Of a DNA stretch of 64,000 nucleotides, positions 16,008 to 32,099 are shown piece after piece; positions within the stretch are counted from its first letter, which is position 1, and each line of letters starts with the position of its first letter. Under the pieces are notes generated by a model. The model made no database searches. It saw only the letters and a program-made list of their open reading frames with translations, and was not told the DNA's origin. Position numbers and translations under genes: made by a program. This DNA is from an uncultured Candidatus Saccharibacteria bacterium (GTDB lineage Bacteria > Patescibacteriota > Minisyncoccia > Phycocordibacterales > UBA6899): positions 29,164 to 93,163 of the forward strand of contig CAZERF010000002.1 in NCBI GenBank assembly GCA_964515375.1, written 5' to 3'.

Positions 16008-17606
16008 ATGTCTATGAGACGATCCATCATCAGGTCAAGCATCGCACTCCTCACGCTGAGTGCGTTTATCGCGCAGACCGCGCTCGCGGGAACGGTCGGT
16101 CCTGTGGGTGGTCCGTACGTCCCTGTCTACGACAAAACAACCAACACCAACTTCAAAGAATACATCGACCTCTTCAATAGTCAGATGGGGGCATCCGCTC
16201 CGAATGGCTCAACAGACTCACTGCGCGACTTGATCGCCGGAGCAAATCCTCAAGGAATTGCGGCAGCGGAGTGTGCGCGGAAAGATAATGCACTTCCCGC
16301 ATTGGCACTTTCCGATACAAGCCCGTGGGGGAAGGCCGTTGCCTCAACCACAGAAGATGGTGCAAATCTTCCCATTTCAGTACCAGACGGAGGAGACCCC
16401 AGCAACCCGATGGCGGGTCCCTTCATCCAGGTCAATGCAAGTCACTCGCTCCGCTGTTTGCTTGAGGATATTTTGGAATTCCAAAAACTTGGTGTGAGCA
16501 TTCAGCTTCACAAGCTTCTCAAAGACTACATCGCCGACGCCCAGACCAAACAGCTCACCAACCAGCTCCGCAACAAGGTCGCCGCAGCCAACCTCGACTG
16601 GTCGCGATCGGGAAATATGATCAACGACGGGGGGACGACGAGCTATGCACCGGTCTTCAGTACCAACCCCGCCGCGAGTCAATTCAATGTTTCCAATCGC
16701 CAGCTCTCGCACATCACCGACCAAGCTGCCGCCGACCCGATGGCGGGAAATCCTGTCGGCTCTCTGGGTATCGCCGCTCCATGGCGGTTCGACACAACCG
16801 CCAGCATGGTCAACAACATGCGCGGACTCGTCGACGACCCCTTCAACTGGACTCAATCTATTACCGGGCAAGGATTGACCACCGGAGCCAACCCGCTCTT
16901 TGCCGACGAATATGATTGGACCAAATTCAACCAAAGCTTCAACGACCCCTCGGCACTGAAGGGTGGGATGCTCACCTTCCTCGAAACAGCACTCGTCCCC
17001 TCCAACAACCCGATCGGTGCCTCCCAGCTCGCCGACATGGCGGCCAAGGGTCGTATTGAGCGCCAACTTGAAACAACAAAACTCAAGCAAACATCCTCCG
17101 GGTTCATTCCTGCGACGTCCTACGACACCAACCCTGCCAACCCCTACAGTCTCGATATGCAGTATGGTGTCGACACCAACCCCGCCGGGCAGAACCAACA
17201 AGTCGTGACCGACATGTCGCGCCAGGGAGACGAACAGGTTCGCGACGGCATGTCGCTCGATGCGCTCGGTGCCCCCTCGGCAATGACCCAATCAACCTCG
17301 CTCAATGCGGGAGGTGGAGTGCTCAATTACGACACAGCCCCGCTTGCTACCTCCACTACGGTAGTGAACTCCCTGGTGAAGGAAATTTATGACATCATTT
17401 GGTATGGCTATATCGGAGTCAGTGTGGATACTGCTGAATTTGCGAACGGAACCATGCTCTCCATCTACGACAATATGGCCTTCAACGACCAAATGCCTTC
17501 GGTTGTTCTTCCCGATCAAGCAATAGGCGGTGGCGGTGGGACCGATAGCACCGTTGATCTTTACGACAGCAGCTGGGGTGATTGGTCGAGCTGGTTCAAT
17601 TGGTGA
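16008..17606 (+). CDS. Secreted protein (hypothetical), 532 aa
   Basis: Signal peptide (…AQTALA|GT). No recognisable catalytic motifs. Trp-rich C-terminus WGDWSSWFNW. Confidence 0.65.
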   Translation: MSMRRSIIRSSIALLTLSAFIAQTALAGTVGPVGGPYVPVYDKTTNTNFKEYIDLFNSQMGASAPNGSTDSLRDLIAGANPQGIAAAECARKDNALPALALSDTSPWGKAVASTTEDGANLPISVPDGGDPSNPMAGPFIQVNASHSLRCLLEDILEFQKLGVSIQLHKLLKDYIADAQTKQLTNQLRNKVAAANLDWSRSGNMINDGGTTSYAPVFSTNPAASQFNVSNRQLSHITDQAAADPMAGNPVGSLGIAAPWRFDTTASMVNNMRGLVDDPFNWTQSITGQGLTTGANPLFADEYDWTKFNQSFNDPSALKGGMLTFLETALVPSNNPIGASQLADMAAKGRIERQLETTKLKQTSSGFIPATSYDTNPANPYSLDMQYGVDTNPAGQNQQVVTDMSRQGDEQVRDGMSLDALGAPSAMTQSTSLNAGGGVLNYDTAPLATSTTVVNSLVKEIYDIIWYGYIGVSVDTAEFANGTMLSIYDNMAFNDQMPSVVLPDQAIGGGGGTDSTVDLYDSSWGDWSSWFNW

Positions 17607-17673
17607 TCGATCGTCGTAGCAATTGTTTAGTTCGTGAATTTGTTTGAAAGTTTGGAGGAGCAGAGACGCAATA

Positions 17674-20265
17674 ATGAAACGCATGCAAAAAAAGACATTC
17701 ATCACACCGTTCATCTTTCTTTCCCTCCTTTTCGGGGCACTCTTCCCGACGAGCGTCGCACTTGCAGCAAATGAACCGTCAGCAGAAAATCCATGGTGTG
17801 TCATCCAGCAAGACGGCACCGCGGGAGAATGTTTTGCAACAGTAGCCATTTGCGGCCCGGCAAGCGGAGGTGCGGGTTGCGAAAACTATAATGATTTCAA
17901 ACCTGCCGTTCAACAATCTTACGAGAATGCGGCCTCGCTTCCTGAGAGGGCAATGGACTCTGCACTGTCGGGAATCTCCGGTTTGGTCATGGATGGAATT
18001 GCGCTTATTGCCGAGTGGATAAATGGAATTGCGGCAATATTCCTCACTCAAATGGCGTATATTCTCGATGCGTCGATCGACATAACGATCAAATCGTCAG
18101 TATATGCCAACCTTGCCGTGGTGAACATTGGATGGACCGCGGTACGCGACTTCTCCAATATGTTCTTTATCTTCGCGCTCCTCTACATTGCGATCCTCAC
18201 CATCCTCGGCCTCGCAGGATCCAACACCAAACGCTGGGTCGCACACTTGATCATCGGCGCACTCCTCATCAACTTCAGCCTCTTTGCAACCAAGGTCGTC
18301 ATCGACGCGGGCAACGTTCTTGCGGTCGGCTTCTGGGAAAAGCTGAAGTCAGACCAAGGCAGCGAAGAGATCAATAGTGCTGCGGCACATTTCATGCAGG
18401 GATTCAAGATTCAGACCGTTTACTCCAACACTGACGCAAAGGCGAACGGAGGAGCGGGAGAGACACTCAAGTTGGACAGCTCAACACGCGCAATGATCTT
18501 TCTTGGCGGTGCGATCATGATGTTCATCGCGGGATACCTTTTCTTGGCGGGAGCTATCATGATGATCGTCCGCACCGTCACGCTGATCCTCCTCATGATC
18601 TTCTCTCCTTTTGCCTTCCTCGGATTTGCTCTTCCTAAGGGAGGAGGGTTCGCGCACACATGGTTGAACAAGCTGATCGGCTCCACCTTTGTCGCACCCG
18701 CCTTCATCTTTATGCTCTACTTAAACGCGCTCATCATCAGCTCGCTTGATGACGAGAAACTCACGAGTGCCGCCGGTTCAAATGCCTCCGCCGCTTTCTT
18801 GGGCTCTGCGGCTAACTTTGCCGTTATCCTCAACTTCGTCACCATGGCCATCCTCCTCCTCTCCTCCATCACGGTCGCGAACGCCGTTTCGTCGGGCGCG
18901 GGGACACAAGCCGGATCGTGGTCCAAGAAGCTCCTCGGATACGGTGGCGGTCTCGCCGTCGGTGCGGCGGGCATTGCGGGTGGACGCCTTGGAAGACAGG
19001 TAGGTGGAAGTCTCGGGCGAGTCGCGCAAAATAGCAAAGCTGTTCAACGCCTTGCTGCGAAGGATAACTTGGTGCTCAGGAACTTTGGGAGAGCGGTACA
19101 AAAGACCGGGCAAAAGATGTCCGAAGGAACGTGGGATGTACGCAATACCGGCGCAATAAAGACAGCAAACAAGGGTCTTGCTCTCACAAACACAGGTATT
19201 ACCCTTCAGGGGACAGGGGAGGCAAGCAAGAAGAGCTTTACTACACACGGCGGCCTCGTAGGTGGAGCGGTCGCGGCCGGCACGACAGCAGCGCTAAGAA
19301 AGGCTGGGGCGAAAGAGTGGGTTGACCAAGAACCCCTCCGATTCCGCGGATCAAAGAACGAAGAAGAGCTCATTAAAGAGGCAAAGGAACGCTTCAAGGG
19401 TAACCCCAAAGCGCAAGAACTCTTCCTTAAGGATCATGGTGTTCAATTGGACGCCGCAAGAAACAAAGAGATCAGCAACGAGATCAAGCGAGAAGAACGC
19501 AAGAAAGAAAATGTTAAGGATATTGAGGAGAGACTCAAAACTCAAGCTGGTGTTGACCTGAAAGAGATCGGTAAGATGAAGCCGGAAGAGATCGAAGCGC
19601 TCAATAAAAAGATCGAAGAAAACATGGGGCAAATGGCGCCCGATGTCGCGGATAAATTTGTCAAAGAGTTTAGCGGTGCGCTTGAGAAGATCAGTGGCAA
19701 GGAGTATGCCGACATGGGTCAGAACTTCTTGAACCTTGCTCTTGTCCAGCGCGCAGCAAACGGCAAACACCTCGCCGAGGTCAATACTCGCCTTTCCGAT
19801 GGAACAATGGTGATGGACAAACCGCAAGAATACAGCGACAAACTCGCACAAACAGTCTTTACTCGTGGCACCGATGGCGGGAAGAGCTGGATGAGAAATC
19901 AAATGAGGCAAGGAAACTCGAGTCTCACCATCGACGGAGCAGGCGAACTGAACAAGGCGCTCGCTATTGCCGATGAGGACGAGCGTGAGAAGAGTATTCG
20001 AAATGCAATGAGCTTTATGTCTCATGACCAAGTTGCGGGGCTTCAAAATGACCAGCTCCTTGCGCTTGACCCCTACTTAACCGATGGACACTACAAAGCA
20101 ATGGGGACTAAAAAGCGCACAGAGCTCAAAAAATTGATTGAAGATCGTGACACAGCACAGAAAGCCGCGATCACCGCGCAGACCCAAGCCGCGCAAGCAG
20201 CCAAGGATGCGGCCGAAAAAACAAAGCGCGACGCCGCACTCGACGCAGAATCAAAGCTCGTATAA
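17674..20265 (+). CDS. VirB6/TrbL-like polytopic membrane protein of a T4SS-like system. Signal peptide and Cys-rich N-terminal region, then ≥6 TM helices and a long K/E-rich coiled-coil C-terminal tail.
   Basis: ATG at 17674 preceded by GGAGGAG. The ORF track starts at a TTG at 17644. The architecture (periplasmic N-domain, multi-TM core with long hydrophobic helices, charged C-tail of ~400 aa) matches Gram-positive VirB6 analogues (TcpH/PrgH-like). Its neighbours are VirB3- and VirB4-like genes. Assigned on topology and context, not by alignment. Confidence 0.5.
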   Translation: MKRMQKKTFITPFIFLSLLFGALFPTSVALAANEPSAENPWCVIQQDGTAGECFATVAICGPASGGAGCENYNDFKPAVQQSYENAASLPERAMDSALSGISGLVMDGIALIAEWINGIAAIFLTQMAYILDASIDITIKSSVYANLAVVNIGWTAVRDFSNMFFIFALLYIAILTILGLAGSNTKRWVAHLIIGALLINFSLFATKVVIDAGNVLAVGFWEKLKSDQGSEEINSAAAHFMQGFKIQTVYSNTDAKANGGAGETLKLDSSTRAMIFLGGAIMMFIAGYLFLAGAIMMIVRTVTLILLMIFSPFAFLGFALPKGGGFAHTWLNKLIGSTFVAPAFIFMLYLNALIISSLDDEKLTSAAGSNASAAFLGSAANFAVILNFVTMAILLLSSITVANAVSSGAGTQAGSWSKKLLGYGGGLAVGAAGIAGGRLGRQVGGSLGRVAQNSKAVQRLAAKDNLVLRNFGRAVQKTGQKMSEGTWDVRNTGAIKTANKGLALTNTGITLQGTGEASKKSFTTHGGLVGGAVAAGTTAALRKAGAKEWVDQEPLRFRGSKNEEELIKEAKERFKGNPKAQELFLKDHGVQLDAARNKEISNEIKREERKKENVKDIEERLKTQAGVDLKEIGKMKPEEIEALNKKIEENMGQMAPDVADKFVKEFSGALEKISGKEYADMGQNFLNLALVQRAANGKHLAEVNTRLSDGTMVMDKPQEYSDKLAQTVFTRGTDGGKSWMRNQMRQGNSSLTIDGAGELNKALAIADEDEREKSIRNAMSFMSHDQVAGLQNDQLLALDPYLTDGHYKAMGTKKRTELKKLIEDRDTAQKAAITAQTQAAQAAKDAAEKTKRDAALDAESKLV

Positions 20266-20280
20266 CACTCCCCACAAATC

Positions 20281-21033
20281 ATGATCACGATCACAGCACA
20301 GCAATGGACCGAACGGTTCAAAATACTCCCTGAAGAGATCAGACAGATATTGATGAACGAAGAAGATCAGCTTCCTGATCGCCTTGAACAGATTCTTGCT
20401 TCAGAAAACCTTGACGAACTACAACTCGAACGTCTTTCCCGTCTCACTGCCTATCTCCTCATGGGTTTTGTTCACCCGACAGAATTTGTCGAATCGATCA
20501 CAAAAGACTGCGAAGTTGAGAATGAAAGGGCGGTCATCATTGCACAAGAGATCAACAAAATGATCTTCAGTCCGGCAAAAAATGCGCTCCAGCTCGTCCA
20601 CGAGCACAACAAGAAAGATTCCAGCATAACAAACATCTCAACAAACAACACTCCGGTCTCAAGAGAATCTCATTTTACTCAAACGACCGCTCCTGCACCT
20701 TTGCCCCCCTCACCCCTCACGGCAGCAACATCCTCCGAAATGCCCGCCGTCGAGCCAAAACCTCACATCGGAAACATCTTTGAGGAAAAGTTGGGCGGAT
20801 CGTTCCGTGTAAAGAGCGACGAGGTTGCCTACACCGCTTCAAAGACAAAGGCCGATATTCCACCTATTCCGCGCGTCACTCCTCCCGTATCTTCAACGCC
20901 TTCCCCGATACCTGCCTCGCCTTCAGCACCTGCACCAGTGGCAACCCCTCCTCTCCCGCCGACACCACCGATGCCTCCGACCCCTCCTGCTCCAACAGCA
21001 AAGAATCCGGACCCTTATCGCGAAGCAGTCTAA
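20281..21033 (+). CDS. Hypothetical protein with Pro-rich C-terminus (…PPLPPTPPMPPTPPAPT…)
   Basis: ORF with protein-like N-terminal 110 aa and a low-complexity P/T/S tail. Stop 4 bp before the terminator hairpin. Confidence 0.6.
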   Translation: MITITAQQWTERFKILPEEIRQILMNEEDQLPDRLEQILASENLDELQLERLSRLTAYLLMGFVHPTEFVESITKDCEVENERAVIIAQEINKMIFSPAKNALQLVHEHNKKDSSITNISTNNTPVSRESHFTQTTAPAPLPPSPLTAATSSEMPAVEPKPHIGNIFEEKLGGSFRVKSDEVAYTASKTKADIPPIPRVTPPVSSTPSPIPASPSAPAPVATPPLPPTPPMPPTPPAPTAKNPDPYREAV

Positions 21034-21037
21034 CAAA

Positions 21038-21066
21038 AACACCGCCTCAAATGGCGGTGTTTTTGT
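21038..21066 (+). terminator. Rho-independent terminator (AACACCGCC-TCAAAT-GGCGGTGTT + T-run)
   Basis: Perfect 9-bp stem followed by TTTTGTT. Confidence 0.7.
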
Positions 21067-21589
21067 TGCCCTTCCCCACATTGTGTATTCAAAACACACA
21101 CAGAAAACGGAGAAACCGAGAGCGACTCCTTTCTCCGAGGCATGCATACCTGCCGAGAGCTAGACTTTCCGAGACCACAAAGGATCTCCGTTGGTTTTCC
21201 TATTCCTTGTACAAGGGCCGCCCTTGTACGGGGATTCTCCGATGTCCATCCTTGGACAACCCCACAGAAACCAAAACCAGACTTATGTACTTACGTAACA
21301 ATCCTTTTCTGGATTCCTCGATAAACCTCGGCGTGACGAAAGAATGCATCTCCATCCCTCTCACACACATTCCACTCTCCCCGCAGTCACTAGGCGACCT
21401 CAAATTCAAGGAGCAAGGTGACGACGAATTTGGAAGTACTCGGAGCGGTGCTTGGTGTCGTCAAAACATTCCATTTGGCAACCCGGCAAACAACGAAAAA
21501 TAGCTCGCCAACACGAAATGTTGAACAAAACAACCTTATGAACATTCAAAACCTCATCAGGATAAGCTATAATAAAGAGAGTCACGCAT

Positions 21590-22018
21590 ATGCAATTCCA
21601 AGTCCCACAATTTCTCGACGTCGAAGACAAGATCATTGGACCCTTTACGATCAAACAATTCATCTACCTTGCCGGCGGAGTCGGTATGGGATATATGCTG
21701 TATCGCTTCATACCCTATATCGGAGCGATTCTCGGTCTTGCGGTGATCGCACTCGGATGGGCACTCGGATTCTACAAGTACAATGGTAAGCCCCTTGTTC
21801 ACCTTGTTCAATCAGCCTTCCTTTACGCACAGAGTGGCCGGCTCTATATTTGGAAGCGGGCAAAGCGTCCAAACGAGGACATCCTCGACCTCTCCAACTT
21901 CAAGACGACCAAACGTACCAACGTGCTCACCAGTCAACATCACACAAGCAAACTTTCGGGAATGGCATGGTCCATTGGCCTCGACAAGAGCACGGAAGAA
22001 GAAGATGCGCTCACGTGA
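21590..22018 (+). CDS. PrgI/VirB3-like small membrane protein of T4SS
   Basis: N-terminus MQFQVPQFLDVEDKIIGPFTIKQFIYLAGG followed by two TM helices. The size and position immediately upstream of VirB4 are typical of the PrgI family (VirB3 analogue). Confidence 0.55.
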   Translation: MQFQVPQFLDVEDKIIGPFTIKQFIYLAGGVGMGYMLYRFIPYIGAILGLAVIALGWALGFYKYNGKPLVHLVQSAFLYAQSGRLYIWKRAKRPNEDILDLSNFKTTKRTNVLTSQHHTSKLSGMAWSIGLDKSTEEEDALT

Positions 22019-22045
22019 TTATTCGTTTTTTGATATACTCATACC

Positions 22046-22696
22046 ATGCCCATACCAGGAAAACCGACGCAGGATTTCATTCCGATCAAAGATATTCGGA
22101 ATGGTATCATCGTATTGAACGACGGGGGACTCCGTATGATCCTGATGACCTCATCGCTCAATTTTGGACTCAAATCCTCCGACGAACAAGCGGCGATCAT
22201 CATGCAATTCCAGAACTTTTTGAACTCGATCGAATTCCCGATCCAGATCTATATTCAATCAAAACGTCTCAATATCACCCCGTACCTCAAACTCCTTGAA
22301 GAACGCGAGCGCGTTCAACTCATCGATGCCATGAAGATCCAGGTACATGAATATATCAGCTTCATCAAGGACTTCACAGATCGCACAAACATCATGTCAA
22401 AGACCTTCTTTATCGTGATTCCTTATTCAGGAGGTCTGCAGCTCAAGAAGGGAAGCGGGGTCATGCTCGGATCCGCGGCCCCTGTTTCCAAAACAGCAAA
22501 GAAGGGAGGGTTGTCGGAAGACGAGATCAAGCGTTTCGAAGAAGCCCGCACTCAACTCGAGCAGCGTGTCGCCATTGTCGAACAAGGTCTCGCGCGATGT
22601 GATGTACGCACAACTCGCCTCGGCGACGAAGAGATCACGGAGCTCTTTTACAAGAAATTCAACCCCGGCGAGCTTGAGTCCGCCGTGCAAAACTGA
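22046..22696 (+). CDS. VirB4/TrbE-like ATPase, N-terminal region (separate ORF, possibly a frameshifted part of one virB4 gene)
   Basis: …DFIPIKDIRNGIIVLNDGGLRMILMTSSLNFGLKSSDEQAAII… matches the conserved N-terminal segment of Gram-positive-type VirB4 proteins (TcpF/PrgJ-like). Stop is 5 bp before the next ORF. Confidence 0.6.
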   Translation: MPIPGKPTQDFIPIKDIRNGIIVLNDGGLRMILMTSSLNFGLKSSDEQAAIIMQFQNFLNSIEFPIQIYIQSKRLNITPYLKLLEERERVQLIDAMKIQVHEYISFIKDFTDRTNIMSKTFFIVIPYSGGLQLKKGSGVMLGSAAPVSKTAKKGGLSEDEIKRFEEARTQLEQRVAIVEQGLARCDVRTTRLGDEEITELFYKKFNPGELESAVQN

Positions 22697-22701
22697 ACAC
22701 C

Positions 22702-24507
22702 ATGCCCAACGAAAACAAAGGATACGAGATGTTCAACACTCAAGGAGTACTCCCTTCAGACCTTTACGAGGCGGCAAATGTCGACCTGCGCGACATCTTG
22801 GCTCCTGCGGCGGTCAAGGTCGAGCGCAACGCGATCTCGGTCGGAGACAAGCTTCTTCGAACATTCTTCGTTATTTCCTATCCGCGCTTCCTCTCGCAAG
22901 ATTGGTTCACTCCGGTTATCAACCTCGACAAGGTCTACGATATCTCGATCATGATCCACCCCGTCGAGACCGAACTCGCGCTCCGCACCTTCCAGAAAAA
23001 AGTCGCCGAAGTCCAGAGTCAGATCAACGAACGCGAGCGCAAGGGATTTGTGCGTGACCCGGTGCTCGATGTTGCATACCAAGATCTCGAGGACCTCCGT
23101 GACAAGCTCCAACAAGCACAGGAGCACCTCTTTGACGTCGGGGTCTACATCACTCTATATGGAAGCGACAAGGGAGAGCTCGACAAGGTTGAAGGCGAGC
23201 TCCGTTCGATCCTCGACTCCAAGCTTGTCTACCTGAAGCCCGCTATTTTTCAACAAGAACAAGGGTACCGCAGCGTTCTCCCTATCATGAAAGACGAGCT
23301 CGAAGTACACTACAAACTCAATTCCGCGCCGCTTTCTTCTATTTTCCCCTTTGTCTCCTTTGACTTAACCACCGACAAAGGGATTCTTTGGGGAATCAAT
23401 CGCCACAACGCCTCTCTCGTTCTTTTTGATCGCTTTTCGATGCCCAACTACAACTCGGTCACCTTTGCGGTCTCCGGTTCGGGAAAATCCTACACAACCA
23501 AACTCGAGATCTTGCGCACGCTCATGTTCGATGCGGATGTGATCGTGATCGACCCGGAGCAAGAATACCAATTCCTTGCAGAGGCGACAGGGGGGCGTTA
23601 CTTCAACATCTCACTCACCTCAGAGCACCACATCAACCCCTTCGACCTTCCAATCCCGCGCGACGACGAATCACCTGCCGACGTGCTTCGCTCAAACACG
23701 ATCTTTTTGGTCGGACTCTTCCGCATCATGCTGGGCGGGCTCTCTCCGGAAGAAGACGCCATCATTGACCGCGCCATTGGTGAAACCTACGCCCTCAAAG
23801 ATATCCACCCGGACTCAAACTTCGCCAACATCGAACCGCCACTTCTCTCCGACTTTGAACTCGTTCTCTCGGGAATGGACGGAACAGAAAGCCTCTTGCA
23901 GCGTCTCGAAAAGTACACCCGCGGAACATGGTCAGGGTTCATGAACATGCCGACGAACGTCGACATCACCAAACGCTTCACTGTTTTCTCTGTGCGCAAC
24001 ATGGAAGACGACCTAAAGCCGGTCGCGGTCTATATCATCACCCACCACATCTGGACCGCCATCCGCAAAGAACTTCGCAAACGCCTTCTCGTCGTCGACG
24101 AAGCCTGGTGGATGATGAAATCCGAAGACACTGCATCCTTCCTCTTTGGCCTCGCAAAACGCGGCCGCAAATACTACCTCGGTATCGCGACGATCACCCA
24201 AGACGTCAACGACTTCTTGCGCTCACCCTACGGACTTCCGATCTTGACCAACTCCTCCATCCAGATCCTCCTCAAGCAGTCCCCGACAACGATTGACCTT
24301 GTCCAACAAACCTTCCACATCACCGACGAGGAGAAGTACCTACTCCTTGAGTCGGGGGTGGGAGAAGGACTCTTCTTTGCCGGACTCAAACACGTCGCGA
24401 TCAAGGTCTACGCATCCTACACCGAAGACCAGATCGTCTCCTCCGATCCGGCACAGATGCTCGCGATCGCCAAAGCGAAAAAAGACCTTGAAATGGCACA
24501 AGAATAA
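22702..24507 (+). CDS. VirB4/TrbE-like T4SS ATPase, central and C-terminal ATPase region
   Basis: Walker A AVSGSGKSYTTK and Walker B LLVVDEAWWMM. Conserved …RTFFVISYPRFL…DISIMIHP… middle segment. 601 aa. Confidence 0.85.
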   Translation: MPNENKGYEMFNTQGVLPSDLYEAANVDLRDILAPAAVKVERNAISVGDKLLRTFFVISYPRFLSQDWFTPVINLDKVYDISIMIHPVETELALRTFQKKVAEVQSQINERERKGFVRDPVLDVAYQDLEDLRDKLQQAQEHLFDVGVYITLYGSDKGELDKVEGELRSILDSKLVYLKPAIFQQEQGYRSVLPIMKDELEVHYKLNSAPLSSIFPFVSFDLTTDKGILWGINRHNASLVLFDRFSMPNYNSVTFAVSGSGKSYTTKLEILRTLMFDADVIVIDPEQEYQFLAEATGGRYFNISLTSEHHINPFDLPIPRDDESPADVLRSNTIFLVGLFRIMLGGLSPEEDAIIDRAIGETYALKDIHPDSNFANIEPPLLSDFELVLSGMDGTESLLQRLEKYTRGTWSGFMNMPTNVDITKRFTVFSVRNMEDDLKPVAVYIITHHIWTAIRKELRKRLLVVDEAWWMMKSEDTASFLFGLAKRGRKYYLGIATITQDVNDFLRSPYGLPILTNSSIQILLKQSPTTIDLVQQTFHITDEEKYLLLESGVGEGLFFAGLKHVAIKVYASYTEDQIVSSDPAQMLAIAKAKKDLEMAQE

Positions 24508-24514
24508 TCTGCAA

Positions 24515-24543
24515 CAGACCCCAAAACGGGGTCTGTTGTTTTC
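24515..24543 (+). terminator. Rho-independent terminator (CAGACCCC-AAAAC-GGGGTCTG + TTGTTTT)
   Basis: Perfect 8-bp GC-rich stem plus T-rich tail, 8 bp after the virB4 stop. Confidence 0.75.
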
Positions 24544-24612
24544 CGGCTGATTTATCAACACACATGATCATTTTCTCAAACACAAGAGAGTGAAATAAGA
24601 TATAATGGACAA

Positions 24613-25119
24613 GTGGGAACGATAACAGAAAAGGTCGTAAAAAAGCGCACACCTCTTGTTGCTCAGAGAAACACGTACATCGAGGAAAAGACTGCTGAAG
24701 CCAAGAAAAACGAAGTGCCAAAGGGTGGCTACATCCTCTTTTTTCTCGTGCTGGGGGTCGCGCTCATCGAAGACCTTCTCGACGGTGCATTCATTCTGCT
24801 TCAGCTTGTCGGGACCGGGCTTTCAGCAACGGCAGTCGGCGCGCCACTTGGAATGCCGATTGCCTTCCTCGCTGCGTTTGGCGAAAAGCTTGTTGGCCTC
24901 TTTGCAACAATGACTCTCCTTTTCTACTTCGGATTTATCGGTGGACGGCTCAGTTTGCGGTTGGCGATAATGAGTGTTGGGTTTATAATGGAGATGGTCC
25001 CATTCCTAAGTCTCCTTCCGTTCACCACGTTCACATTTGTATCCGCCTTCATGTTCGGTCGTATTTCAAAAAAAGTTCAAGGAAAGATCGTCGGAAAAAT
25101 GATTCCTAATAAAACGTAA
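24613..25119 (+). CDS. Small polytopic membrane protein (hypothetical, 4 TM)
   Basis: GTG start per the ORF track. Hydrophobic helices (YILFFLVLGVALI, PLGMPIAFLAAFG, LFATMTLLFYFGFIGG, VPFLSLLPFTTFTFVSAFMFG). Confidence 0.55.
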   Translation: MGTITEKVVKKRTPLVAQRNTYIEEKTAEAKKNEVPKGGYILFFLVLGVALIEDLLDGAFILLQLVGTGLSATAVGAPLGMPIAFLAAFGEKLVGLFATMTLLFYFGFIGGRLSLRLAIMSVGFIMEMVPFLSLLPFTTFTFVSAFMFGRISKKVQGKIVGKMIPNKT

Positions 25120-25137
25120 TTTAACGCATCATAAGTC

Positions 25138-26109
25138 ATGACTCGTATACATTTCATTATCGTTTCCCTCTTCTCCTCATTCGTATTCTTTCCGTCTGTC
25201 GCACTTGCGATCGACCTCATCACTATGAGTACGATCCCCGCGATTCCGGGGCCCAACCAAGAGGTGACTCTCACCATCAACTCATTTGCGGTAAATCTCA
25301 ACTCCTCCGAGATCGTTTGGTATGTCGACGGAGAACCGATGGCGCAAGGCATGGCAATGAAAAGCTTCTCCTTCCGCACCAAGGATTTTGGGAGTCCCTC
25401 CATCATCAACGCATCGATCGTCGGCCCGAACGGCACGATCGACAAACGTTTTGTCGTAGAGCCTTCCGAAGTTGATCTTCTTTGGGAAGCCAATACTATC
25501 ACCCCGCCCTTTTATAAAGGAAAAGCGCTCCCCACCTTCAAAAGCTTGGTGCGGGTGACTGCAATTCCCCGCAAGAATTCCCCTTCAAGCGACCCCTCAA
25601 CCTTTTATTATAAATGGACATACAACCGCATCCAAGGACTCGGCGAAGCACAAAGCATGAACAGTGTCACGATTCCAATGGGTTACCCCGACTCTCCGGT
25701 CCCCGTCAATGTTGAAGTCACCATGAAAGGCACTGACTGGAAAGCACCGGAATTCATGAATGTCGTACCCACAGAACCAAAAATCGTCTTTTACGAAGAA
25801 GCGCCACTTCTTGGTACGAATTTTTTTACCGCACTCACAAAAGGGTCTGAACGAGAAGGCAATCAAATCGCTCTCCGTGCCGTGCCGTATTTCTTCTCGA
25901 CCGAGAACCTTATTAACAACGATCTCGTCTACACATGGATAGTGAACGGAACGACACAAGCACGCGGTTTTGACCCGACCAAGCTTCAACTCCAAAAGTC
26001 AGGAAAGGGTGCCGAGAGCTTCAGTGTCAACCTTCGCATCCAAAACCCGAAGCGCATTCTTCAAGAAGCGCGTGCAGCAACAAGCATTACACTCCCTTCG
26101 GAGGAATAA
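25138..26109 (+). CDS. Secreted protein (hypothetical), 323 aa
   Basis: Signal peptide …FFPSVALA|ID. Beta-rich composition. No catalytic motifs recognised. Confidence 0.65.
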   Translation: MTRIHFIIVSLFSSFVFFPSVALAIDLITMSTIPAIPGPNQEVTLTINSFAVNLNSSEIVWYVDGEPMAQGMAMKSFSFRTKDFGSPSIINASIVGPNGTIDKRFVVEPSEVDLLWEANTITPPFYKGKALPTFKSLVRVTAIPRKNSPSSDPSTFYYKWTYNRIQGLGEAQSMNSVTIPMGYPDSPVPVNVEVTMKGTDWKAPEFMNVVPTEPKIVFYEEAPLLGTNFFTALTKGSEREGNQIALRAVPYFFSTENLINNDLVYTWIVNGTTQARGFDPTKLQLQKSGKGAESFSVNLRIQNPKRILQEARAATSITLPSEE

Positions 26110-26130
26110 TCATTTTTTGACAAACGGTAT

Positions 26131-27534
26131 ATGGACGAACAACAACAAAATAACAAAAAGAAGATCATTATTGTGGGTGGGGTGATCATTGCGCTTCTTC
26201 TTGTTCTCCTCGGTGTTCTCTTCTTCTTGCGCAACGAAGAAGGAGAAGGGGGGATCATGACCTCACTCTTTGGCAATCTTGGTATTGAGACCCCTCGCGA
26301 AGGGAACGCGCCGATCACTCCGGGAGATCCTTCTTCAAACGGAGAAAACAATGGGCAACAAAAAGAAGAAGAACCTCTTTTCCGACAACTCTCGACATTT
26401 CCCGTTGCGGGAGCAACCTCACTCGAGAGGGGAGAGAAGACTGTTGTGCGATTCATTGCGCGTGAGAACGGGTTTGTCTATGAAACGGATCCACGCACCG
26501 GGGTCGTCACCCAGCTCACCAATACAACCGTCCCCCGCATCCACGAGGCACGCTTTGCACTCGACGGAGGGGCAATCATCCTTCGCTATCTTCAGGTCGA
26601 AGATCGACTTCTAAAGAAAGAGAGCATTCGTACGTATCTTGCCTATCTTTCAGTCCCCGAATTTTCTGCAGAAAGCACCTCAACCAACCCTGTGCTCGGA
26701 CGGTTGACCGGGGATTTCCTTCCCGACAATATCACTGAACTCAGTGTTTCACCCGATGGGACGCAACTGTTTTACCTTCTCCCGATCGCAAACGGCGTTT
26801 CCGGAACGATTGTGAATATTCGCACCAAAGAAGCCCGTGAGATCTTTCGCAATTCCTTTAGCGAATGGATTCCTCAACTCTTGAATGACGGAACGATCAT
26901 CCTTACCACCAAGGCATCCGCGCGGTTTGAGGGTTATGTCTATCATTACGACCCCGACAAGAAGACTCTTTCTCGCGTGATCAGAAAAGTGCGCGGTGTC
27001 ACCTCATTTACCAACCCAACGGGCACACGCACCCTTTTCAATGAAATTACTCCAGGTTCTGTTCGCTTGAATGTGTGGACACAAGAGGGGTATCTCTATG
27101 ACGAAGAGGGGGTACGAGAGAGCATCACGATTCCCATTGCAACACTCCCTGAAAAATGCTCATGGGCAAAAAACAACGTCCGTATTTTTTGTGGCGCATC
27201 AATGGGCACCCCGCGCGGAGAGCTCCCCGATGAGTGGTATCAGGGCACAATGAGCTTCCAAGACACCTTCTGGACTGTCGACACGGACACTTCTGAGATC
27301 ACCTTTCTCGCGGACCCAACCAAGGAAGAGAAGGCTCTACGTTCATTTGACGTCATTTGGCCGTTCACGAGTGTTGATGAGCGCTACATGATCTTTACCA
27401 ACAAAACCGACATGAACCTCTGGTCATTCCGTATTCCGAAAGAAAAATACATGGAACAAGAGAAGGACACCTCAACCGAAGAGGAAGAATTGACCGAAGA
27501 CGAACTCAAAGATGCGGCCGGAAGCCAACTCTAA
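26131..27534 (+). CDS. N-terminally membrane-anchored protein with probable beta-propeller (TolB/PD40-like) ectodomain. Hypothetical.
   Basis: K-rich start, then TM (IIIVGGVIIALLLVLLGVLFFL). Repeated SPDG-type blades (LSVSPDGTQLFYL). Acidic C-terminus. Confidence 0.6.
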   Translation: MDEQQQNNKKKIIIVGGVIIALLLVLLGVLFFLRNEEGEGGIMTSLFGNLGIETPREGNAPITPGDPSSNGENNGQQKEEEPLFRQLSTFPVAGATSLERGEKTVVRFIARENGFVYETDPRTGVVTQLTNTTVPRIHEARFALDGGAIILRYLQVEDRLLKKESIRTYLAYLSVPEFSAESTSTNPVLGRLTGDFLPDNITELSVSPDGTQLFYLLPIANGVSGTIVNIRTKEAREIFRNSFSEWIPQLLNDGTIILTTKASARFEGYVYHYDPDKKTLSRVIRKVRGVTSFTNPTGTRTLFNEITPGSVRLNVWTQEGYLYDEEGVRESITIPIATLPEKCSWAKNNVRIFCGASMGTPRGELPDEWYQGTMSFQDTFWTVDTDTSEITFLADPTKEEKALRSFDVIWPFTSVDERYMIFTNKTDMNLWSFRIPKEKYMEQEKDTSTEEEELTEDELKDAAGSQL

Positions 27535-27950
27535 AAAAGAGATCCCCTCACTGGGGATTTCTTTTTGGGTCTTTTTCATCATGACGAGTATAATGAAAGG
27601 ATGATACGCATATTCACACTTCTCTTTTCTCTTATTCCATTCTTTGCGTTTGCGGGTGACAAAACATATACACTCATTGCTCCGATCGGAACATTGAGTG
27701 GTGCGGTGACTCTCCAAACATATCTCGAGGGTGCATTCACGACCATTATCGGTATTGCAGGGATCTTGGCGGTCCTTATGCTCGTGATCTGCGGGATCAA
27801 ACTGATGGGTACCGGGTCGGTATCCGCAAAGAGTGAAGCGAAGCAGTGTATCTATAATGCGATCTTTGGACTACTCTTGGCATTGTCATCGTGGATCATC
27901 TTAAACACGATCAATCCGATGCTTCTGCGGAGTGATGCGGAGCTGGCGGT
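27533..27950 (+). repeat. Copy 1 of a 418-bp perfect tandem direct repeat (copy 2 at 28685..29102) carrying terminator, promoter/RBS and the first ~117 codons of the downstream gene
   Basis: By-eye alignment of the two regions shows identity across terminator hairpin, GAAAGGATGATACGC start region and 130 identical N-terminal residues (counted from the ORF-track start) in the two ORFs. Identity breaks at 27951/29103. Confidence 0.85.
27541..27567 (+). terminator. Rho-independent terminator (GATCCCC-TCACT-GGGGATC + TTTCTTTTTGG). An identical copy is at 28693..28719.
   Basis: Hairpin plus T-run immediately after the 26131..27534 stop. It is part of the duplicated module. Confidence 0.65.
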
Positions 27951-28683
27951 TGCGGTGCCGTCGGCGCCTCCGGCGGCACAATCACAAGGAGGAGTGCTTG
28001 AGGGTGGTCAAGTCGCGCCTGGGGACGATCCAATGCCAACCGAAGAAGGCTGGTACTATCGCTACAAAGTTCCCGCAGGGAATGTGAAGAACTCGACAAG
28101 ATTTGATACCGCACAAGGTTGTCTTTCAGTACAAGAGGCACAAGAACAAACAGAACCGGCGAGTGTCGTCAAAAAATGCTTCCAGGTCGAAAAACAAGTT
28201 GGAGGAGTCACACTTTCGGGACTATCAGCAGATGAAAAAGGCACGCGAAATGCGTTGTGTGGGAATGACTCTTGTGTGAGTGAAAGCTCAACCAATGTGT
28301 ACATTAACAACGCGCCATGCCCCCCGGGAAGCGCCGGGAAGGGGTGTACCAATGTCACAAAACTTCCCACCGAAACCGTGAACATGGTGAAATCACTGGC
28401 GTCAAAATGTGGATGCAGAGTAACGATCACCGGAGGGACAGAACCCGGACACCAAACACACGGGCCAAACAATCCCCAGATCGATATCACTCTCAAAAAC
28501 CCGACACTCAACAATTATATTCAAAAGAATGCGACAGCATCTCGCGCTGCAGGAGGAAATGCTGCCAATAAATATGCGGTTGACGGATGGTGGTTCGTCG
28601 ACGAAAAAGGTGCTCAACCCCACTGGCATATCTGCCCAGTCGGATATGTCCAAGAAAGGGAAAAATGGTGTGGGCCAATATAG
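27601..28683 (+). CDS. Secreted/membrane-anchored protein, paralog A. N-terminal SP+2-TM module (VirB2/TrbC-like topology). C-terminal Cys-rich domain, possibly a Zn-dependent M15-like peptidoglycan peptidase.
   Basis: Start at ATGATACGC (MIRIF…) with GAAAGGA SD. The ORF track starts 36 nt earlier. C-terminal motifs …ITGGTEPGHQTHGPNNPQIDITL… and …PHWHI are reminiscent of H-x(n)-D…H zinc ligands of M15 peptidases. This is weak. Confidence 0.6.
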   Translation: MIRIFTLLFSLIPFFAFAGDKTYTLIAPIGTLSGAVTLQTYLEGAFTTIIGIAGILAVLMLVICGIKLMGTGSVSAKSEAKQCIYNAIFGLLLALSSWIILNTINPMLLRSDAELAVAVPSAPPAAQSQGGVLEGGQVAPGDDPMPTEEGWYYRYKVPAGNVKNSTRFDTAQGCLSVQEAQEQTEPASVVKKCFQVEKQVGGVTLSGLSADEKGTRNALCGNDSCVSESSTNVYINNAPCPPGSAGKGCTNVTKLPTETVNMVKSLASKCGCRVTITGGTEPGHQTHGPNNPQIDITLKNPTLNNYIQKNATASRAAGGNAANKYAVDGWWFVDEKGAQPHWHICPVGYVQEREKWCGPI

Positions 28684-28684
28684 C

Positions 28685-29102
28685 AAAAAAGAGATCCCCT
28701 CACTGGGGATTTCTTTTTGGGTCTTTTTCATCATGACGAGTATAATGAAAGGATGATACGCATATTCACACTTCTCTTTTCTCTTATTCCATTCTTTGCG
28801 TTTGCGGGTGACAAAACATATACACTCATTGCTCCGATCGGAACATTGAGTGGTGCGGTGACTCTCCAAACATATCTCGAGGGTGCATTCACGACCATTA
28901 TCGGTATTGCAGGGATCTTGGCGGTCCTTATGCTCGTGATCTGCGGGATCAAACTGATGGGTACCGGGTCGGTATCCGCAAAGAGTGAAGCGAAGCAGTG
29001 TATCTATAATGCGATCTTTGGACTACTCTTGGCATTGTCATCGTGGATCATCTTAAACACGATCAATCCGATGCTTCTGCGGAGTGATGCGGAGCTGGCG
29101 GT
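28685..29102 (+). repeat. Copy 2 of the 418-bp perfect direct repeat
   Basis: See copy 1. Confidence 0.85.
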
Positions 29103-29991
29103 ATACGTACCCAAGGCTCCCACAGGAGCACCTGCGGTGGGAAGTACTCCAAGTATAGCTGGTGCCCCAACTGCACCAGGTTGTTATTTTAAGTTCAAAG
29201 ACCTAAAAACAAAAAAGACTGAGTATCAACGTTTTGACTCAACAAGCGACGGAACATGTCTATCATGCAACGAAGTACGCAGAAATTTTCAACTCTACCC
29301 CGAACAATATGAAATACTAAGCGAATGTTACGAGATCAAGGAAGGTCAAACTCCCACCCCTCCTCCGGGAGATACAAGAGGAACACTCATGGATGGCGTA
29401 CGTTGTTCAGGACAACCTGCGAACCTCTGCGAGCCGTATCCGCTTCCCGGTGGCTGCGAAAACACACAATGCGCACAATTCTTTCCAATGGTGAGGAGTG
29501 CGGCAAGAGGTTCGGCAACCGCAAGTTTTCTTATGGCAATGATAGTAAAAGAGTCCTCATGCGGAATGAACCTCACCTCCCCTGCGGGAGCATGTGGACC
29601 AACACAACTCCTTCCATCAACAGCAAACGCATATAAAGCAGCCTGTGGTGTCACCGAAACAATCACTTGCCAATGGTTAGCAAGTAAGGCAAACTGGCAG
29701 AAGGCGATATGTATCAGTGCAAATTACTTCAACTCCAACACAGGAAGCGGTTGTGGTTCTAGTGTTATCGGACTTGCGGCGGGGTACAACGGTGGATACG
29801 GGAGTAAAACCTGTGGCCCAAGTGCAAACTGTGCCTCTCAAACAAGTTGCCGCGGTGGAACAGTGCGTCGCTGGGAATGCCCCTACGAAGACAATGCGCA
29901 CACTCAGTGTAACGCAGGGTATAGAGAAACACGAAACTATGGACCGATGGTCCTCTACTGTCAGCAGTATTACCAACAGAAAGGACTCTGA
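28753..29991 (+). CDS. Secreted/membrane-anchored lytic transglycosylase-like protein, paralog B (VirB1-like function inferred). Identical N-terminal module to paralog A.
   Basis: C-terminal region carries SLT-family signature …MIVKESSCGMNLTSPAGACGPTQLLPSTANAY… (E-S catalytic pair, AGA-G-Q-L-P-TA) and a …LAAGYNGG… (AYN-G) motif. Confidence 0.65.
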   Translation: MIRIFTLLFSLIPFFAFAGDKTYTLIAPIGTLSGAVTLQTYLEGAFTTIIGIAGILAVLMLVICGIKLMGTGSVSAKSEAKQCIYNAIFGLLLALSSWIILNTINPMLLRSDAELAVYVPKAPTGAPAVGSTPSIAGAPTAPGCYFKFKDLKTKKTEYQRFDSTSDGTCLSCNEVRRNFQLYPEQYEILSECYEIKEGQTPTPPPGDTRGTLMDGVRCSGQPANLCEPYPLPGGCENTQCAQFFPMVRSAARGSATASFLMAMIVKESSCGMNLTSPAGACGPTQLLPSTANAYKAACGVTETITCQWLASKANWQKAICISANYFNSNTGSGCGSSVIGLAAGYNGGYGSKTCGPSANCASQTSCRGGTVRRWECPYEDNAHTQCNAGYRETRNYGPMVLYCQQYYQQKGL

Positions 29992-29993
29992 TC

Positions 29994-30716
29994 ATGAAAA
30001 AAATACTCGTTACACTTATCGCACTACTCTTCCTTCCTTTCTCTCTTGTTTGGGCAATGACCGCATCTCCTATTGAGGAATGGCATATTATCTATCATCT
30101 AAAGTATCGAAACGGGACACTCACATCGGATACCTCATCAGGTTTGGCGTACACCCCGATCATGTATACCCCAGAGTCGCTCGGTCAATCAGATCCAAAA
30201 GATTCCGACTTTTACGCAACAACTCTAAGCGGGAGCGGTACAGAGATCGAACGATTCGGTTTCAACATCCCCACCGTCTATTCACCGGCGCTTGGAGAAA
30301 GTCTCTTTGATGTGACCGGAAAATACTTTGCGTATGCCGATCGCATTGTTTTTTTCAAGAAGGGAGGAGTTGAACTCTTCCGGATCTCACTCAAGGGAAG
30401 TTCTTTTTGTAACGAAGACACGGTGTGCAATGCGGATGCTGGAGAGGATCACATGAACTGTCCAATGGACTGCCCAGCTCCACAGCCAACGACACAAACA
30501 GAGCAAGATCCGACAACAAAGAACGTCACACCCGCAACCCCAAACACCGGTACACCAAATGCGCCGATCGATGTTTCAGTAACACAAGGAGGCGAAAACG
30601 GGAGCAGTACACCACTCCTCACTCCAACACGCACAACTCTCATCGTCGCATCACTTATTGTTCTCATCCTCTTCGGAATACTCTGGAAACTCAAAAGATT
30701 CCGAGATGAAGAATAA
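29994..30716 (+). CDS. Secreted protein with C-terminal TM anchor (hypothetical)
   Basis: Signal peptide …FSLVWA|MT. P/T-rich linker. C-terminal TM (LIVASLIVLILFGILW) plus basic tail. Terminator follows. Confidence 0.65.
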   Translation: MKKILVTLIALLFLPFSLVWAMTASPIEEWHIIYHLKYRNGTLTSDTSSGLAYTPIMYTPESLGQSDPKDSDFYATTLSGSGTEIERFGFNIPTVYSPALGESLFDVTGKYFAYADRIVFFKKGGVELFRISLKGSSFCNEDTVCNADAGEDHMNCPMDCPAPQPTTQTEQDPTTKNVTPATPNTGTPNAPIDVSVTQGGENGSSTPLLTPTRTTLIVASLIVLILFGILWKLKRFRDEE

Positions 30717-30722
30717 GAACAA

Positions 30723-30758: not shown

Positions 30759-31235
30759 TTATTCGGAGACAATAGTGTCTTTAAACCGGAGAACGACATG
30801 ACGATCCTTTCCGCTCCCCGCAGATTCAGTTGTTATATCAGAAGTATCGGCGAATTCAGAATGGACGATCATACGCTCGTACGAACTCATCGGATCCATT
30901 TCAACAGAGCTTTTGAAATATCGCGCGCGTTCCGCGAGCATGTGTGCTTTCGCGCGGATATCCTCAATATGCTTCTTTTGATAGTCATTCACATCGATCA
31001 TGAAGGAAAGATCACTCTCCTTGGCCTGACGCTCAAATATGCGCTTCATGATGTGATTGAGCGCCATAAGTCGTGCTCCATGTTCACCGATCAGGAGCGC
31101 GGAATCGGGGGTCTCGATGACGAAACGCAATGTTCCCGTCCGCTCATCCTCTTCAGTACGGATCTCGTTCACCACAACACCGAGAGTTCGGAGTATCGTG
31201 TGCAATGCGGTTATGATCGTTTCTTTGTGTTCCAT
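30759..31235 (-). CDS. jag: Jag/KhpB-like RNA-binding protein (KH + R3H domains)
   Basis: The KH-like GxxG region (LIGEHGARL) and the conserved position immediately downstream of yidC support this. Confidence 0.75.
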   Translation of the reverse strand: MEHKETIITALHTILRTLGVVVNEIRTEEDERTGTLRFVIETPDSALLIGEHGARLMALNHIMKRIFERQAKESDLSFMIDVNDYQKKHIEDIRAKAHMLAERARYFKSSVEMDPMSSYERMIVHSEFADTSDITTESAGSGKDRHVVLRFKDTIVSE

Positions 31236-31304
31236 AGGAGAATGGCGTTAGGGTAATAAAAATCCCTCCGACAAGAGGGATTTACATTTCAACACAAAAG
31301 TTCA

Positions 31305-32042
31305 CTATTTCGCACGAAGCGCAAGTCTCTTTTTGTGCATCAACATCTCTTGACCGATACCAAGTATATTACTCGTTGCCCAATAAAGCGCAACCGCCGC
31401 GGGGAGTGTAAAGGAAATGATTCCGACGATCACAGGGAGCACATAACGAAGTTGGAGTTGCATTGTTTTTGCAAAATCCTCTTGAAATGAGGGCTTCTCT
31501 CCTTTCTTTGGTTCGATCGCCGGTTGATTCTTAATGGAAATATGAGCCTGGAGATACTGAGTAAAACCGGCAAGAAAAGCGAGGACGGCACTTTTTCCCA
31601 AGAGGTCAAACCCGAGAAAATGCATATCAAGCTCTCCCGGCGAAGAAACAAAAGGATAGAGAATACTCACGTCGATCGTGGGGAGTCCTTTGAAGAATAC
31701 CCAATACAAGCCGAAGATAATAGGGATCTGGATCAGAATAGGAAGACAACCGGAAAAAGGGGTGATCCCTTTTTTCTGGTAAAGTTCCATGGTCTTTTGT
31801 GCCAACTGCTGTTGATCCTTACCGTATTTCTCTTTGAGTGCCTTGAGTTCAGGTTCAAGCTCTTTCATTGCATGTTGTGCCTCGATCGACTTTCCCGCCA
31901 AAGGATACAACACAAGCTTCACAACAAGAGTAAGGAGAATGATCGCCACCCCAACAGAGTGCCACGGAAGGAAGTCAATAATGAGAACCAGAATATTATA
32001 GAGTGGTTGATAGACAACAGAGTGCCAAATAGATGAGATCAT
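31305..32042 (-). CDS. yidC: Membrane protein insertase YidC/Oxa1 (short monoderm-type form)
   Basis: 60 kDa-IMP core motifs (…PFSGCLPILIQIPIIFGLYWVF…). 245 aa and no large periplasmic domain. Canonical rnpA-yidD-yidC context. Confidence 0.88.
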   Translation of the reverse strand: MISSIWHSVVYQPLYNILVLIIDFLPWHSVGVAIILLTLVVKLVLYPLAGKSIEAQHAMKELEPELKALKEKYGKDQQQLAQKTMELYQKKGITPFSGCLPILIQIPIIFGLYWVFFKGLPTIDVSILYPFVSSPGELDMHFLGFDLLGKSAVLAFLAGFTQYLQAHISIKNQPAIEPKKGEKPSFQEDFAKTMQLQLRYVLPVIVGIISFTLPAAVALYWATSNILGIGQEMLMHKKRLALRAK

Positions 32043-32099
32043 GAATGAGTGATTACCGGAAGATGTAAGTGACGAACAATACCTATACTATACCTTCCG

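Follow-up and report, generated by a model that had tools for sequence, protein, structure and literature searches.

A probable relaxase-less type IV secretion system beside the replication origin of a Paceibacteria genome, with VirB2-like pilin modules fused to extracellular domains

A 64,000-nucleotide stretch of contig CAZERF010000002.1 (assembly GCA_964515375.1), called the window here, was analyzed for a type IV secretion system (T4SS)-like locus at window positions 16008-30716. An initial annotation, made from the sequence alone, had described there a run of plus-strand genes with VirB6-, PrgI/VirB3-, VirB4- and VirB1-like members. The run of open reading frames (ORFs) is indeed one-directional, on the plus strand and with short gaps, and it encodes a monoderm-type inner-membrane core of four components, namely a probable VirB6-like protein, PrgI/VirB3, a TrsD-like protein and VirB4. 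Taken with its surroundings, the locus is very probably the relaxase-less chromosomal T4SS of Patescibacteria, lying beside the replication origin of a Paceibacteria genome near Candidatus Lloydbacteria. The initial gene list was incomplete, since a 216-aa ORF directly upstream of virB4 and a 250-aa ORF downstream of the VirB6-like gene had been left out (coordinates of all genes are given in Table 1).

The VirB4 ATPase was recognized by family NF045971 (conju_CD1110) with 348.3 bits against a cut-off of 325, over profile positions 182-733, and it also matches P-loop_TraG (PF19044, 87 bits), AAA_10 and DUF87. Its Walker A (GSGKS) and Walker B (LLVVDE) motifs are intact. The PrgI protein matches PF12666 with an E-value of 1.4e-8 and 35.6 bits against a cut-off of 27; its gene is preceded by a promoter-like site (21545-21573) and is found in 77 of the 82 related loci over which the presence of each gene was counted. 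With VirB4 passing the cut-off of the Clostridioides CD1110 family and PrgI present, the proposal of a Gram-positive-type core holds. The 216-aa ORF, read in another frame than VirB4, matches NF045975 VirB4_plasma at positions 103-233 (E 2.8e-9), NF041427 TrsD (E 5.5e-4) and positions 1-110 of NF045971, and a precomputed PF26593 TraC-like match is recorded for it. In 78 of the 80 loci that carry such an ORF, it is separate, ~210-220 aa long and immediately precedes virB4. A frameshift or pseudogene as the origin of the split was considered and rejected: two intact separate ORFs are conserved in 80 related loci, and the two-ORF arrangement is therefore the normal state. Judged by these matches, the TrsD-like ORF and PrgI adjoin virB4 in the same way as in the T4SS of the Patescibacteria clade.

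The 873-aa protein, whose likely start is ATG 17674 or 17683, was modeled with AlphaFold2 (AF2; predicted local distance difference test score, pLDDT, 71.6 overall and 85-95 in the transmembrane (TM) core). The model has a polytopic membrane domain at about residues 100-480 with roughly six long helices, followed by a charged tail of ~390 residues that looks coiled-coil. Homologues are abundant in Patescibacteria, and TrbL (PF04610) matches 5 of 35 of them with a best E-value of 1.5e-6; precomputed PF04610 and PF19590 matches are also recorded on homologues. Foldseek comparison of the model with the PDB returned R388 TrwI/VirB6 as its top two matches (8rt9_F and 8rtd_L; probability 0.99, E 0.09-0.11, TM(target) 0.46-0.47), while a PDB profile search with the family alignment gave coiled-coil noise only, from the C-terminal tail. 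The gene is found in 64 of the 82 related loci. These data suggest that the protein is VirB6-like, in an extended form that ends in a long charged tail, an assignment that is probable rather than proven. The VirB6/TrbL label given at the outset draws its support from the homologues and the fold match, but not from a Pfam match of the protein itself.

Pfam searches, run on the large ORFs for VirD4, VirB11 and relaxases, placed none of these families and no integrase family among the ORFs of the 64-kb window. A scan for Walker A motifs returned only two PilB proteins, UvrD, VirB4, DnaA, RuvB, TsaE and Gmk, together with motif matches in two non-NTPase ORFs, YidC and a purple-acid-phosphatase-like protein. 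The absence of VirD4, VirB11 and relaxase from the window, as the initial annotation had it, is borne out by the Pfam results on the large ORFs. The annotation had also raised the possibility of a complete conjugative module just outside. Neither the 64 kb nor the few kb beyond either end holds a relaxase, an oriT or a VirD4/TcpA-type coupling ATPase, and the flanks on both sides carry housekeeping and type IV pilus genes.

These absences bear on the view that the locus is half of a working conjugation system, with relaxase, oriT and a VirD4-type coupling protein encoded elsewhere in the genome. VirB4 does belong to a conjugative family, scoring above the NF045971 cut-off, and the inspected span is the 64 kb and a few kb per side of a larger genome. 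Type IV coupling proteins (T4CPs) are, moreover, often encoded away from virB4: in their survey of 3,035 Patescibacteria genomes, Quiñonero-Coronel et al. (2025; PMC12102498) found VirD4 homologues in 2,918 of them, mostly far from virB4. The same survey, however, found relaxases in only 103 of the 3,035 genomes, with only 15 of 109 relaxase genes near virB4 (PMC12102498). In Southlakia epibionticum the T4CP homologue is non-essential whereas the T4SS genes are essential (PMC12102498, PMC10633639). The locus is also fixed between origin housekeeping genes across the class, unlike mobile elements. On balance, half of a conjugation system is a very unlikely description of this locus.

The position of the locus was examined together with its relatives. 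Upstream lie uvrD/pcrA, ksgA and several secreted proteins, downstream the genes around dnaA (Table 1), and the cumulative GC-skew minimum falls near 32-34 kb, at the dnaA flank. According to Pfam, the rest of the window consists of housekeeping and type IV pilus genes, and matching metagenome contigs continue a few kb past both ends with type IV pilin genes and ruvA. Signs of a mobile element were not found: the scanned ORFs gave no integrase, the GC content of the locus is like that of its flanks, and the only tRNA in the window (58171-58243) is ~27 kb away. At least 590 stretches in a collection of species-representative genomes match VirB4. The best 80 of these are 72-91% identical and all come from metagenome-assembled genomes (MAGs) that are unclassified or labelled Patescibacteria or candidate phyla radiation (CPR); identity reaches 86-91% with MAGs of Candidatus Lloydbacteria, a member of the Parcubacteria group, and lies at 72-76% across Paceibacteria. 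Synteny, which the initial annotation had proposed as a check, is conserved: the order uvrD-ksgA ... VirB6-like - (250 aa) - PrgI - TrsD - VirB4 - Ig protein - 467-aa protein - pilin ... jag-yidC-dnaA-dnaN recurs in related genomes, and the gene order between ksgA and yidC-dnaA is kept across the class. The conserved order and the housekeeping flanks indicate that the core locus is vertically inherited and is not a mobile element.

A decaying, functionless remnant of an integrated conjugative element would also be without a relaxase, T4CP and VirB8, and VirB4 does appear 'split' into two ORFs. The split, however, is intact in 80 loci, the Walker motifs are preserved, and VirB4 identities of 72-91%, at least 590 matches and conserved synteny do not fit decay, nor do the missing integrase, the lack of a tRNA beside the locus and a composition like the flanks. 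Because of these conservation data, the idea of a remnant is effectively refuted.

Table 1. Features of the T4SS locus and its origin-side flank (window coordinates)
Feature	Position	Strand	Evidence
Secreted 532-aa protein, lineage-specific	16008..17606	+	signal peptide in translation
Extended VirB6/TrbL-like polytopic membrane protein (probable)	17644..20265	+	family and fold evidence
250-aa protein	20281..21033	+	ORF translation
PrgI/VirB3-like small membrane protein	21590..22018	+	PF12666
TrsD-like protein, stand-alone VirB4 N-terminal domain homologue	22046..22696	+	NCBIfam
VirB4 ATPase, monoderm (MPF-FATA-like) type	22702..24507	+	NF045971, PF19044
168-aa polytopic (~4 TM) membrane protein	24613..25119	+	translation
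Secreted 323-aa Ig-like beta-sandwich repeat protein	25138..26109	+	family scan
TM-anchored 467-aa extracellular protein, possibly beta-propeller	26131..27534	+	weak family matches
Repeat copy 1	27533..27950	+	100% identity to copy 2
VirB2-like pilin module with unannotated C-terminal domain	27601..28683	+	PF18895, AF2
Repeat copy 2	28685..29102	+	100% identity to copy 1
VirB2-like pilin module fused to SLT lytic transglycosylase	28753..29991	+	PF18895, PF01464
240-aa protein, signal peptide and C-terminal TM anchor, lineage-specific, last of run	29994..30716	+	translation
Origin-proximal housekeeping flank: jag/khpB (-), yidC (-), rnpA (-), rpmH (-), dnaA (+), dnaN (+)	30759..35749		Pfam

Near the end of the run, the initial annotation had placed two membrane-anchored cell-wall hydrolase paralogs. 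Their anchors proved to be VirB2-like pilin modules (PF18895, 39-41 bits against 26.6). In the first protein, listed from TTG 27565 but with ATG 27601 as the likelier start, the module scores 40.9 bits and also matches the pilin-like family NF045849 (E 2.6e-6); it is followed by a Pro/Ala linker, a small Cys-bridged domain and an unannotated C-terminal domain. The AF2 model of this protein (pLDDT 79.5) has a helical hairpin at residues 38-104, with helices 38-70 and 74-104, a disordered linker at 112-137 and an alpha/beta domain at 150-360, and weak TrbC matches were obtained in 23 of 28 family members. The second protein, whose ORF is listed from TTG 28717, combines PF18895 (39.4 bits) with an SLT domain (PF01464, 31.1 bits against 21.3) in an architecture common to many database homologues. 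Its catalytic motifs ES279, GPTQ294 and YNGG357 are present, and the predicted activity of this domain is VirB1-like. Of the two hydrolases first proposed, the second thus stands through its SLT domain, while the hydrolase character of the first is a prediction.

Both proteins carry C-terminal extensions of ~250-300 aa and hence are not small stand-alone subunits. The same holds for most pilin-module ORFs in the related loci (L003-L082), 39 of 57 of which have a C-terminal extension of at least 150 aa, with only 9 of 57 standing alone. Fusion partners of PF18895 in databases include SLT, SLT_2, VanY, M15_4, NlpC/P60, YkuD and Calx-beta. Another protein with a pilin module, the third, measures 1,242 aa and is encoded ~31 kb from the T4SS locus at 61973-64000 on the minus strand, where it runs off the right end of the window; the full gene is present on a matching contig (L084:923-4651). 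Its N-terminal PF18895 module, very similar by eye to both modules of the locus, is fused to Calx-beta, dockerin/EF-hand-like and SH3 domains.

The unannotated domain of the first fusion (28015-28683) has invariant R, C, C, GGTE, H, H, D, E and HWH residues, with the motif GGTE..H..H..D..E..HWH. A profile of the domain finds 1,961 clusters at 50% identity (E<=0.001), and among 65 distant members 42 carry PF18895 and 3 also SLT in the same protein. The domain may reasonably be regarded as a putative wall-acting metallo-hydrolase. A closer identity as a LAS/M15 peptidase was suggested by the motif and by the DD-peptidase in the Southlakia locus, and an M15/VanY/LAS profile or fold match with H-x(3-6)-D ... 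H-x-H zinc ligands was looked for. This identity stayed unconfirmed, as Pfam on 28 and 65 members, phmmer against the PDB and profile searches all came back blank. An hhalign comparison of the domain with pilin-VanY fusions likewise gave nothing.

The two pilin modules of the locus lie in an exact direct repeat of 418 bp with a spacing of 1152 bp, after which identity collapses abruptly. Each copy contains a hairpin with a T-run, the ribosome-binding site region and the first 129 codons (from the listed TTG), which make up the pilin module. An assembly artefact was considered as the source of the repeat and rejected. The independent contig L086 runs at 100% identity from the unique 3' end of the first gene through copy 2 into the SLT gene, while four contigs from other samples break inside the repeat (L002 ends within copy 1, and L087-L089 start 30 bp before the end of copy 2); since contigs bridge the repeat or break inside it, the repeat is real. 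In L008, a close relative, one fusion gene occupies the position of the pair. Taken together, the extended modules, the third pilin-module protein and the repeat suggest that the module was recently duplicated or underwent gene conversion and that the C-terminal domain was exchanged. The full identity of the two modules contrasts with the at most 54% identity between pilin paralogues within one array reported for Patescibacteria (PMC12102498).

Between virB4 and the pilin fusions, two proteins recur in most relatives. The 323-aa Ig-repeat (immunoglobulin-like) protein directly follows virB4 in 78 of the 82 loci, and its family scan gave BiPBP_C in 11 of 30 members and Ig_3 in 9 of 30, with no PDB sequence match for the protein itself. 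The 467-aa protein, present in 70 of 82 loci, has invariant Cys and Trp residues in its family. It had been called a TM-anchored beta-propeller; the TM anchor stands, and the propeller has weak matches to its name (PD40 in 3 of 33 homologues; NBCH_WD40, PQQ_2, DPPIV_N and DUF5050 in 1 of 33 each). PDB profile searches with both families gave noise only. Judged by their distribution, the two proteins are taken to be conserved accessory components.

The remaining proteins of the run are more restricted, and none of them has a family match; for the 532-aa and 250-aa proteins this covers both Pfam and NCBIfam. The 532-aa secreted protein has homologues in only 7 of 82 loci, of which five belong to close Lloydbacteria-like relatives, and in each case its gene immediately precedes the VirB6-like one. 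The 168-aa membrane protein is detectable in only 5 close relatives among the 82 loci, and the 240-aa protein has no homologue in them. The 250-aa protein, without a TM segment, has a conserved helical N-terminal part of ~110 aa and a Pro-rich tail; it is found in 20 of 82 loci, in the same slot between the VirB6-like gene and PrgI. A gap of 556 bp (21034-21589) separates its gene from PrgI, against ~60-120 bp upstream of PrgI in those closest relatives where a 250-aa homologue can be detected, and the gap contains, besides the promoter-like site, an unsupported Arg-rich 150-aa ORF (21051-21503). Trp/Gly-rich tails end both the 532-aa protein (…SSWGDWSSWFNW) and the 1,242-aa pilin-adhesin (…HPWGGWSGWGDN). 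A shared sorting signal was considered and dropped, as orthologues of the 532-aa protein do not keep the tail, which therefore probably is no such signal.

Three clear terminators had been described as subdividing the run. Three long hairpin-plus-T-run sites are indeed present (27534-27566, 28686-28718 and 30721-30744), the last a bidirectional terminator-like hairpin directly 3' of the last gene, but the window total of 28 terminator-like sites shows no enrichment over the shuffle expectation of 23 +/- 4.4.

T4SS of this kind are already described for the lineage (PMC10633639, PMC12102498, PMC12857230) and are not new. Quiñonero-Coronel et al. placed the Patescibacteria VirB4 proteins in a monophyletic clade nested in MPF-FATA, with TrsD, PrgI, VirB6 and PF18895 pilins near virB4, and reported proximity of the T4SS to dnaA, dnaN, rnpA, rpmH and ksgA and, in Paceibacteria, association of a VirB1-like enzyme with virB4 (PMC12102498). 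The window locus has the same component set (VirB6 as a probable member), VirB1-like enzyme and chromosomal neighbours, with no relaxase or T4CP nearby, and differs in nothing of kind. Pilin-enzyme fusions take the place of small pilins here, and such fusions are not discussed in the text of that survey.

The best-studied counterpart is the 'apparent T4SS' at the chromosome start of Southlakia epibionticum, which is closest to Gram-positive conjugative systems (PMC10633639). Using transposon sequencing (Tn-seq), Wang et al. found this cluster, SEML1_0006-0019, to be essential for epibiotic growth, a requirement known from S. epibionticum only; it has pilins but no coupling or relaxase proteins, and lysozyme-like and DD-peptidase proteins are encoded beside virB4 (Wang et al., 2023; PMC10633639). 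Shared with the window are VirB4, the adjacent TrsD-like ORF, PrgI, a large protein that is probably VirB6-like in the window, PF18895 pilins, wall hydrolases beside virB4 and the position at the chromosome start, and neither cluster contains a relaxase or coupling protein. Southlakia, however, has six stand-alone pilins of ~100-185 aa where the window locus has only pilin-enzyme fusions, and its hydrolases are separate and large (lysozyme-like x2 plus cysteine protease, and a 1,113-aa Hedgehog/DD-peptidase protein). It also has an NTF2-like protein of VirB8 fold and two VirB6-like genes, against one VirB6-like gene and no detected VirB8-like protein in the window. Saccharimonadia more generally have arrays of short pilins, unlike the Paceibacteria loci with their mostly extended pilin modules.

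Compared with monoderm MPF-FATA systems (pCF10 Prg/Pcf and C. difficile CTn/CD1110-type integrative and conjugative elements), the locus shares a CD1110-level VirB4, PrgI, TrsD, a probable VirB6/PrgH-like protein and a VirB1-like hydrolase. A relaxase, oriT, T4CP, PrgL/VirB8-like protein, PrgB-type adhesin and the mobile element itself are absent here, and the VirB2-like pilin modules of the window have no place in monoderm conjugation systems. With the VirB2/TrbC/TraA pilins of diderms, the modules have in common a signal peptide and a two-helix hydrophobic hairpin; those pilins are small and stand alone, whereas the modules of the window carry a linker and an extracellular enzyme domain of 200-300 aa.

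A non-conjugative use, as proposed in the initial annotation, is likely and is a conclusion already published for the lineage. By analogy with Southlakia, the locus would be non-conjugative and needed for growth on a host cell. DNA uptake had been named as one such use, and a competence-type T4SS like Helicobacter ComB or archaeal Ced could import host DNA as a source of nucleotides, the synthesis of which is presumably lacking, as is typical of CPR bacteria. The P-loop region of VirB4 does match CedB (E 3e-6) and CedD (E 0.047), weakly and far under the cut-offs, and ABY1-class T4SS loci adjoin comF, recG and radA (PMC12102498). Competence of S. epibionticum, however, needs type IV pili and ComEC, and the species tolerates deletion of comEC whereas its T4SS is essential, so that T4SS essentiality is not due to DNA uptake (2025 review, PMC12857230). 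The window also has separate genes for a type IV pilus ATPase and platform, and no ComB- or Ced-specific components were found in it. Import of DNA is consequently a highly improbable function of the locus.

The pilin fusions bear on a further alternative, that the machine is T4SS-derived but serves the organism's own envelope biogenesis or division by positioning wall-remodelling enzymes, with no role in host contact. In favour of this, pilin modules tether wall enzymes as the cargo-like proteins of the locus, yidC is its neighbour at the origin, and Tn-seq in an obligate epibiont cannot separate host-dependent from intrinsic essentiality. Such a role is, however, without precedent, and the genome has a normal PBP1, Mur ligase and M23/LysM hydrolase for wall growth. 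The adhesin-type domains of the third pilin-module protein (Calx-beta, dockerin-like, SH3) moreover point outward, to another cell. A purely internal envelope role is thus distinctly unlikely.

Read as a host-directed Patescibacteria T4SS, the locus could work as follows. VirB4, with TrsD and PrgI, would power the building of a short pilus or stalk on the VirB6 platform, with the pilin-module proteins as its subunits or its decoration. The tethered wall-degrading domains, SLT and the unannotated domain, would open peptidoglycan, certainly the organism's own and possibly that of the host, and a conduit would then be set up for the exchange of proteins or other macromolecules with the host.

Several points weigh against this interpretation, in addition to the inspected span and the widespread VirD4 homologues discussed above. 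No VirB8-like component was identified in the window. The 873-aa protein has no Pfam match of its own and among NCBIfam families only a weak one, to the CD3337/EF1877 'mobilome membrane protein' NF046089 (E 0.012), and its VirB6 assignment is indirect, the fold matches having E-values of ~0.1 and TM values of ~0.3-0.47. The unannotated domain found no Pfam, PDB-sequence or fold match that would speak for a hydrolase. Essentiality and non-conjugative use are extrapolated from Saccharimonadia, another class with stand-alone pilins and separate hydrolases, and the building of a pilus by this locus is a proposal.

A bolder and rather unlikely extension of the host-directed interpretation is that the VirB2-like module in Paceibacteria is a portable T4SS-targeting and anchoring module for 'armed pilins' rather than an ordinary pilus subunit, the machine being a contact-dependent drill of the host wall and more than a channel for secretion. 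VirB4 and VirB6 may then extract and display, or polymerize, module-bearing proteins whose C-termini are wall enzymes (SLT and the GGTE..H..H..D..E..HWH domain) or adhesins (Calx-beta, dockerin-like, SH3), and VanY, NlpC/P60 and YkuD on other database PF18895 proteins may count among the wall enzymes. The 418-bp repeat may in this case stem from a continuing, cassette-like exchange in which effector domains are placed on one pilin module. Should the fusions prove to be the machine's working end, they would reveal how the apparatus acts at the host surface.

The locus itself is a textbook Paceibacteria example and nothing categorically new. T4SS are near-universal in this very large, mostly uncultured bacterial radiation, and to our knowledge the Patescibacteria T4SS is the only one known to be essential to its bearer. 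Two leads emerge from the window: most pilin-like modules of Paceibacteria carry an extracellular enzyme or adhesin domain, which is possibly under-described, and one of the fused domains represents a large family that lacks annotation and has an invariant motif resembling a metal site.

Elsewhere in the window, two type IV pilus gene sets were noted, PilC and PilB at 1432-4262 (-) and a second PilB at 43568-45247 (-). Pilin-like genes just past the left window end (contig L083) accompany the PilC and PilB set, and the two sets agree with the two type IV pilus loci reported in Saccharibacteria. A LysM-LysM-Peptidase_M23 wall hydrolase is encoded at 5940-7070 (-). Upstream of the T4SS genes, a block at 10340-15950 encodes secreted or surface proteins, namely a 763-aa Ser/Thr-rich repetitive protein, a PG_binding+TIG protein, a 172-aa secreted protein and a TSP3-repeat protein, several of which hold the same position in Lloydbacteria-like relatives.

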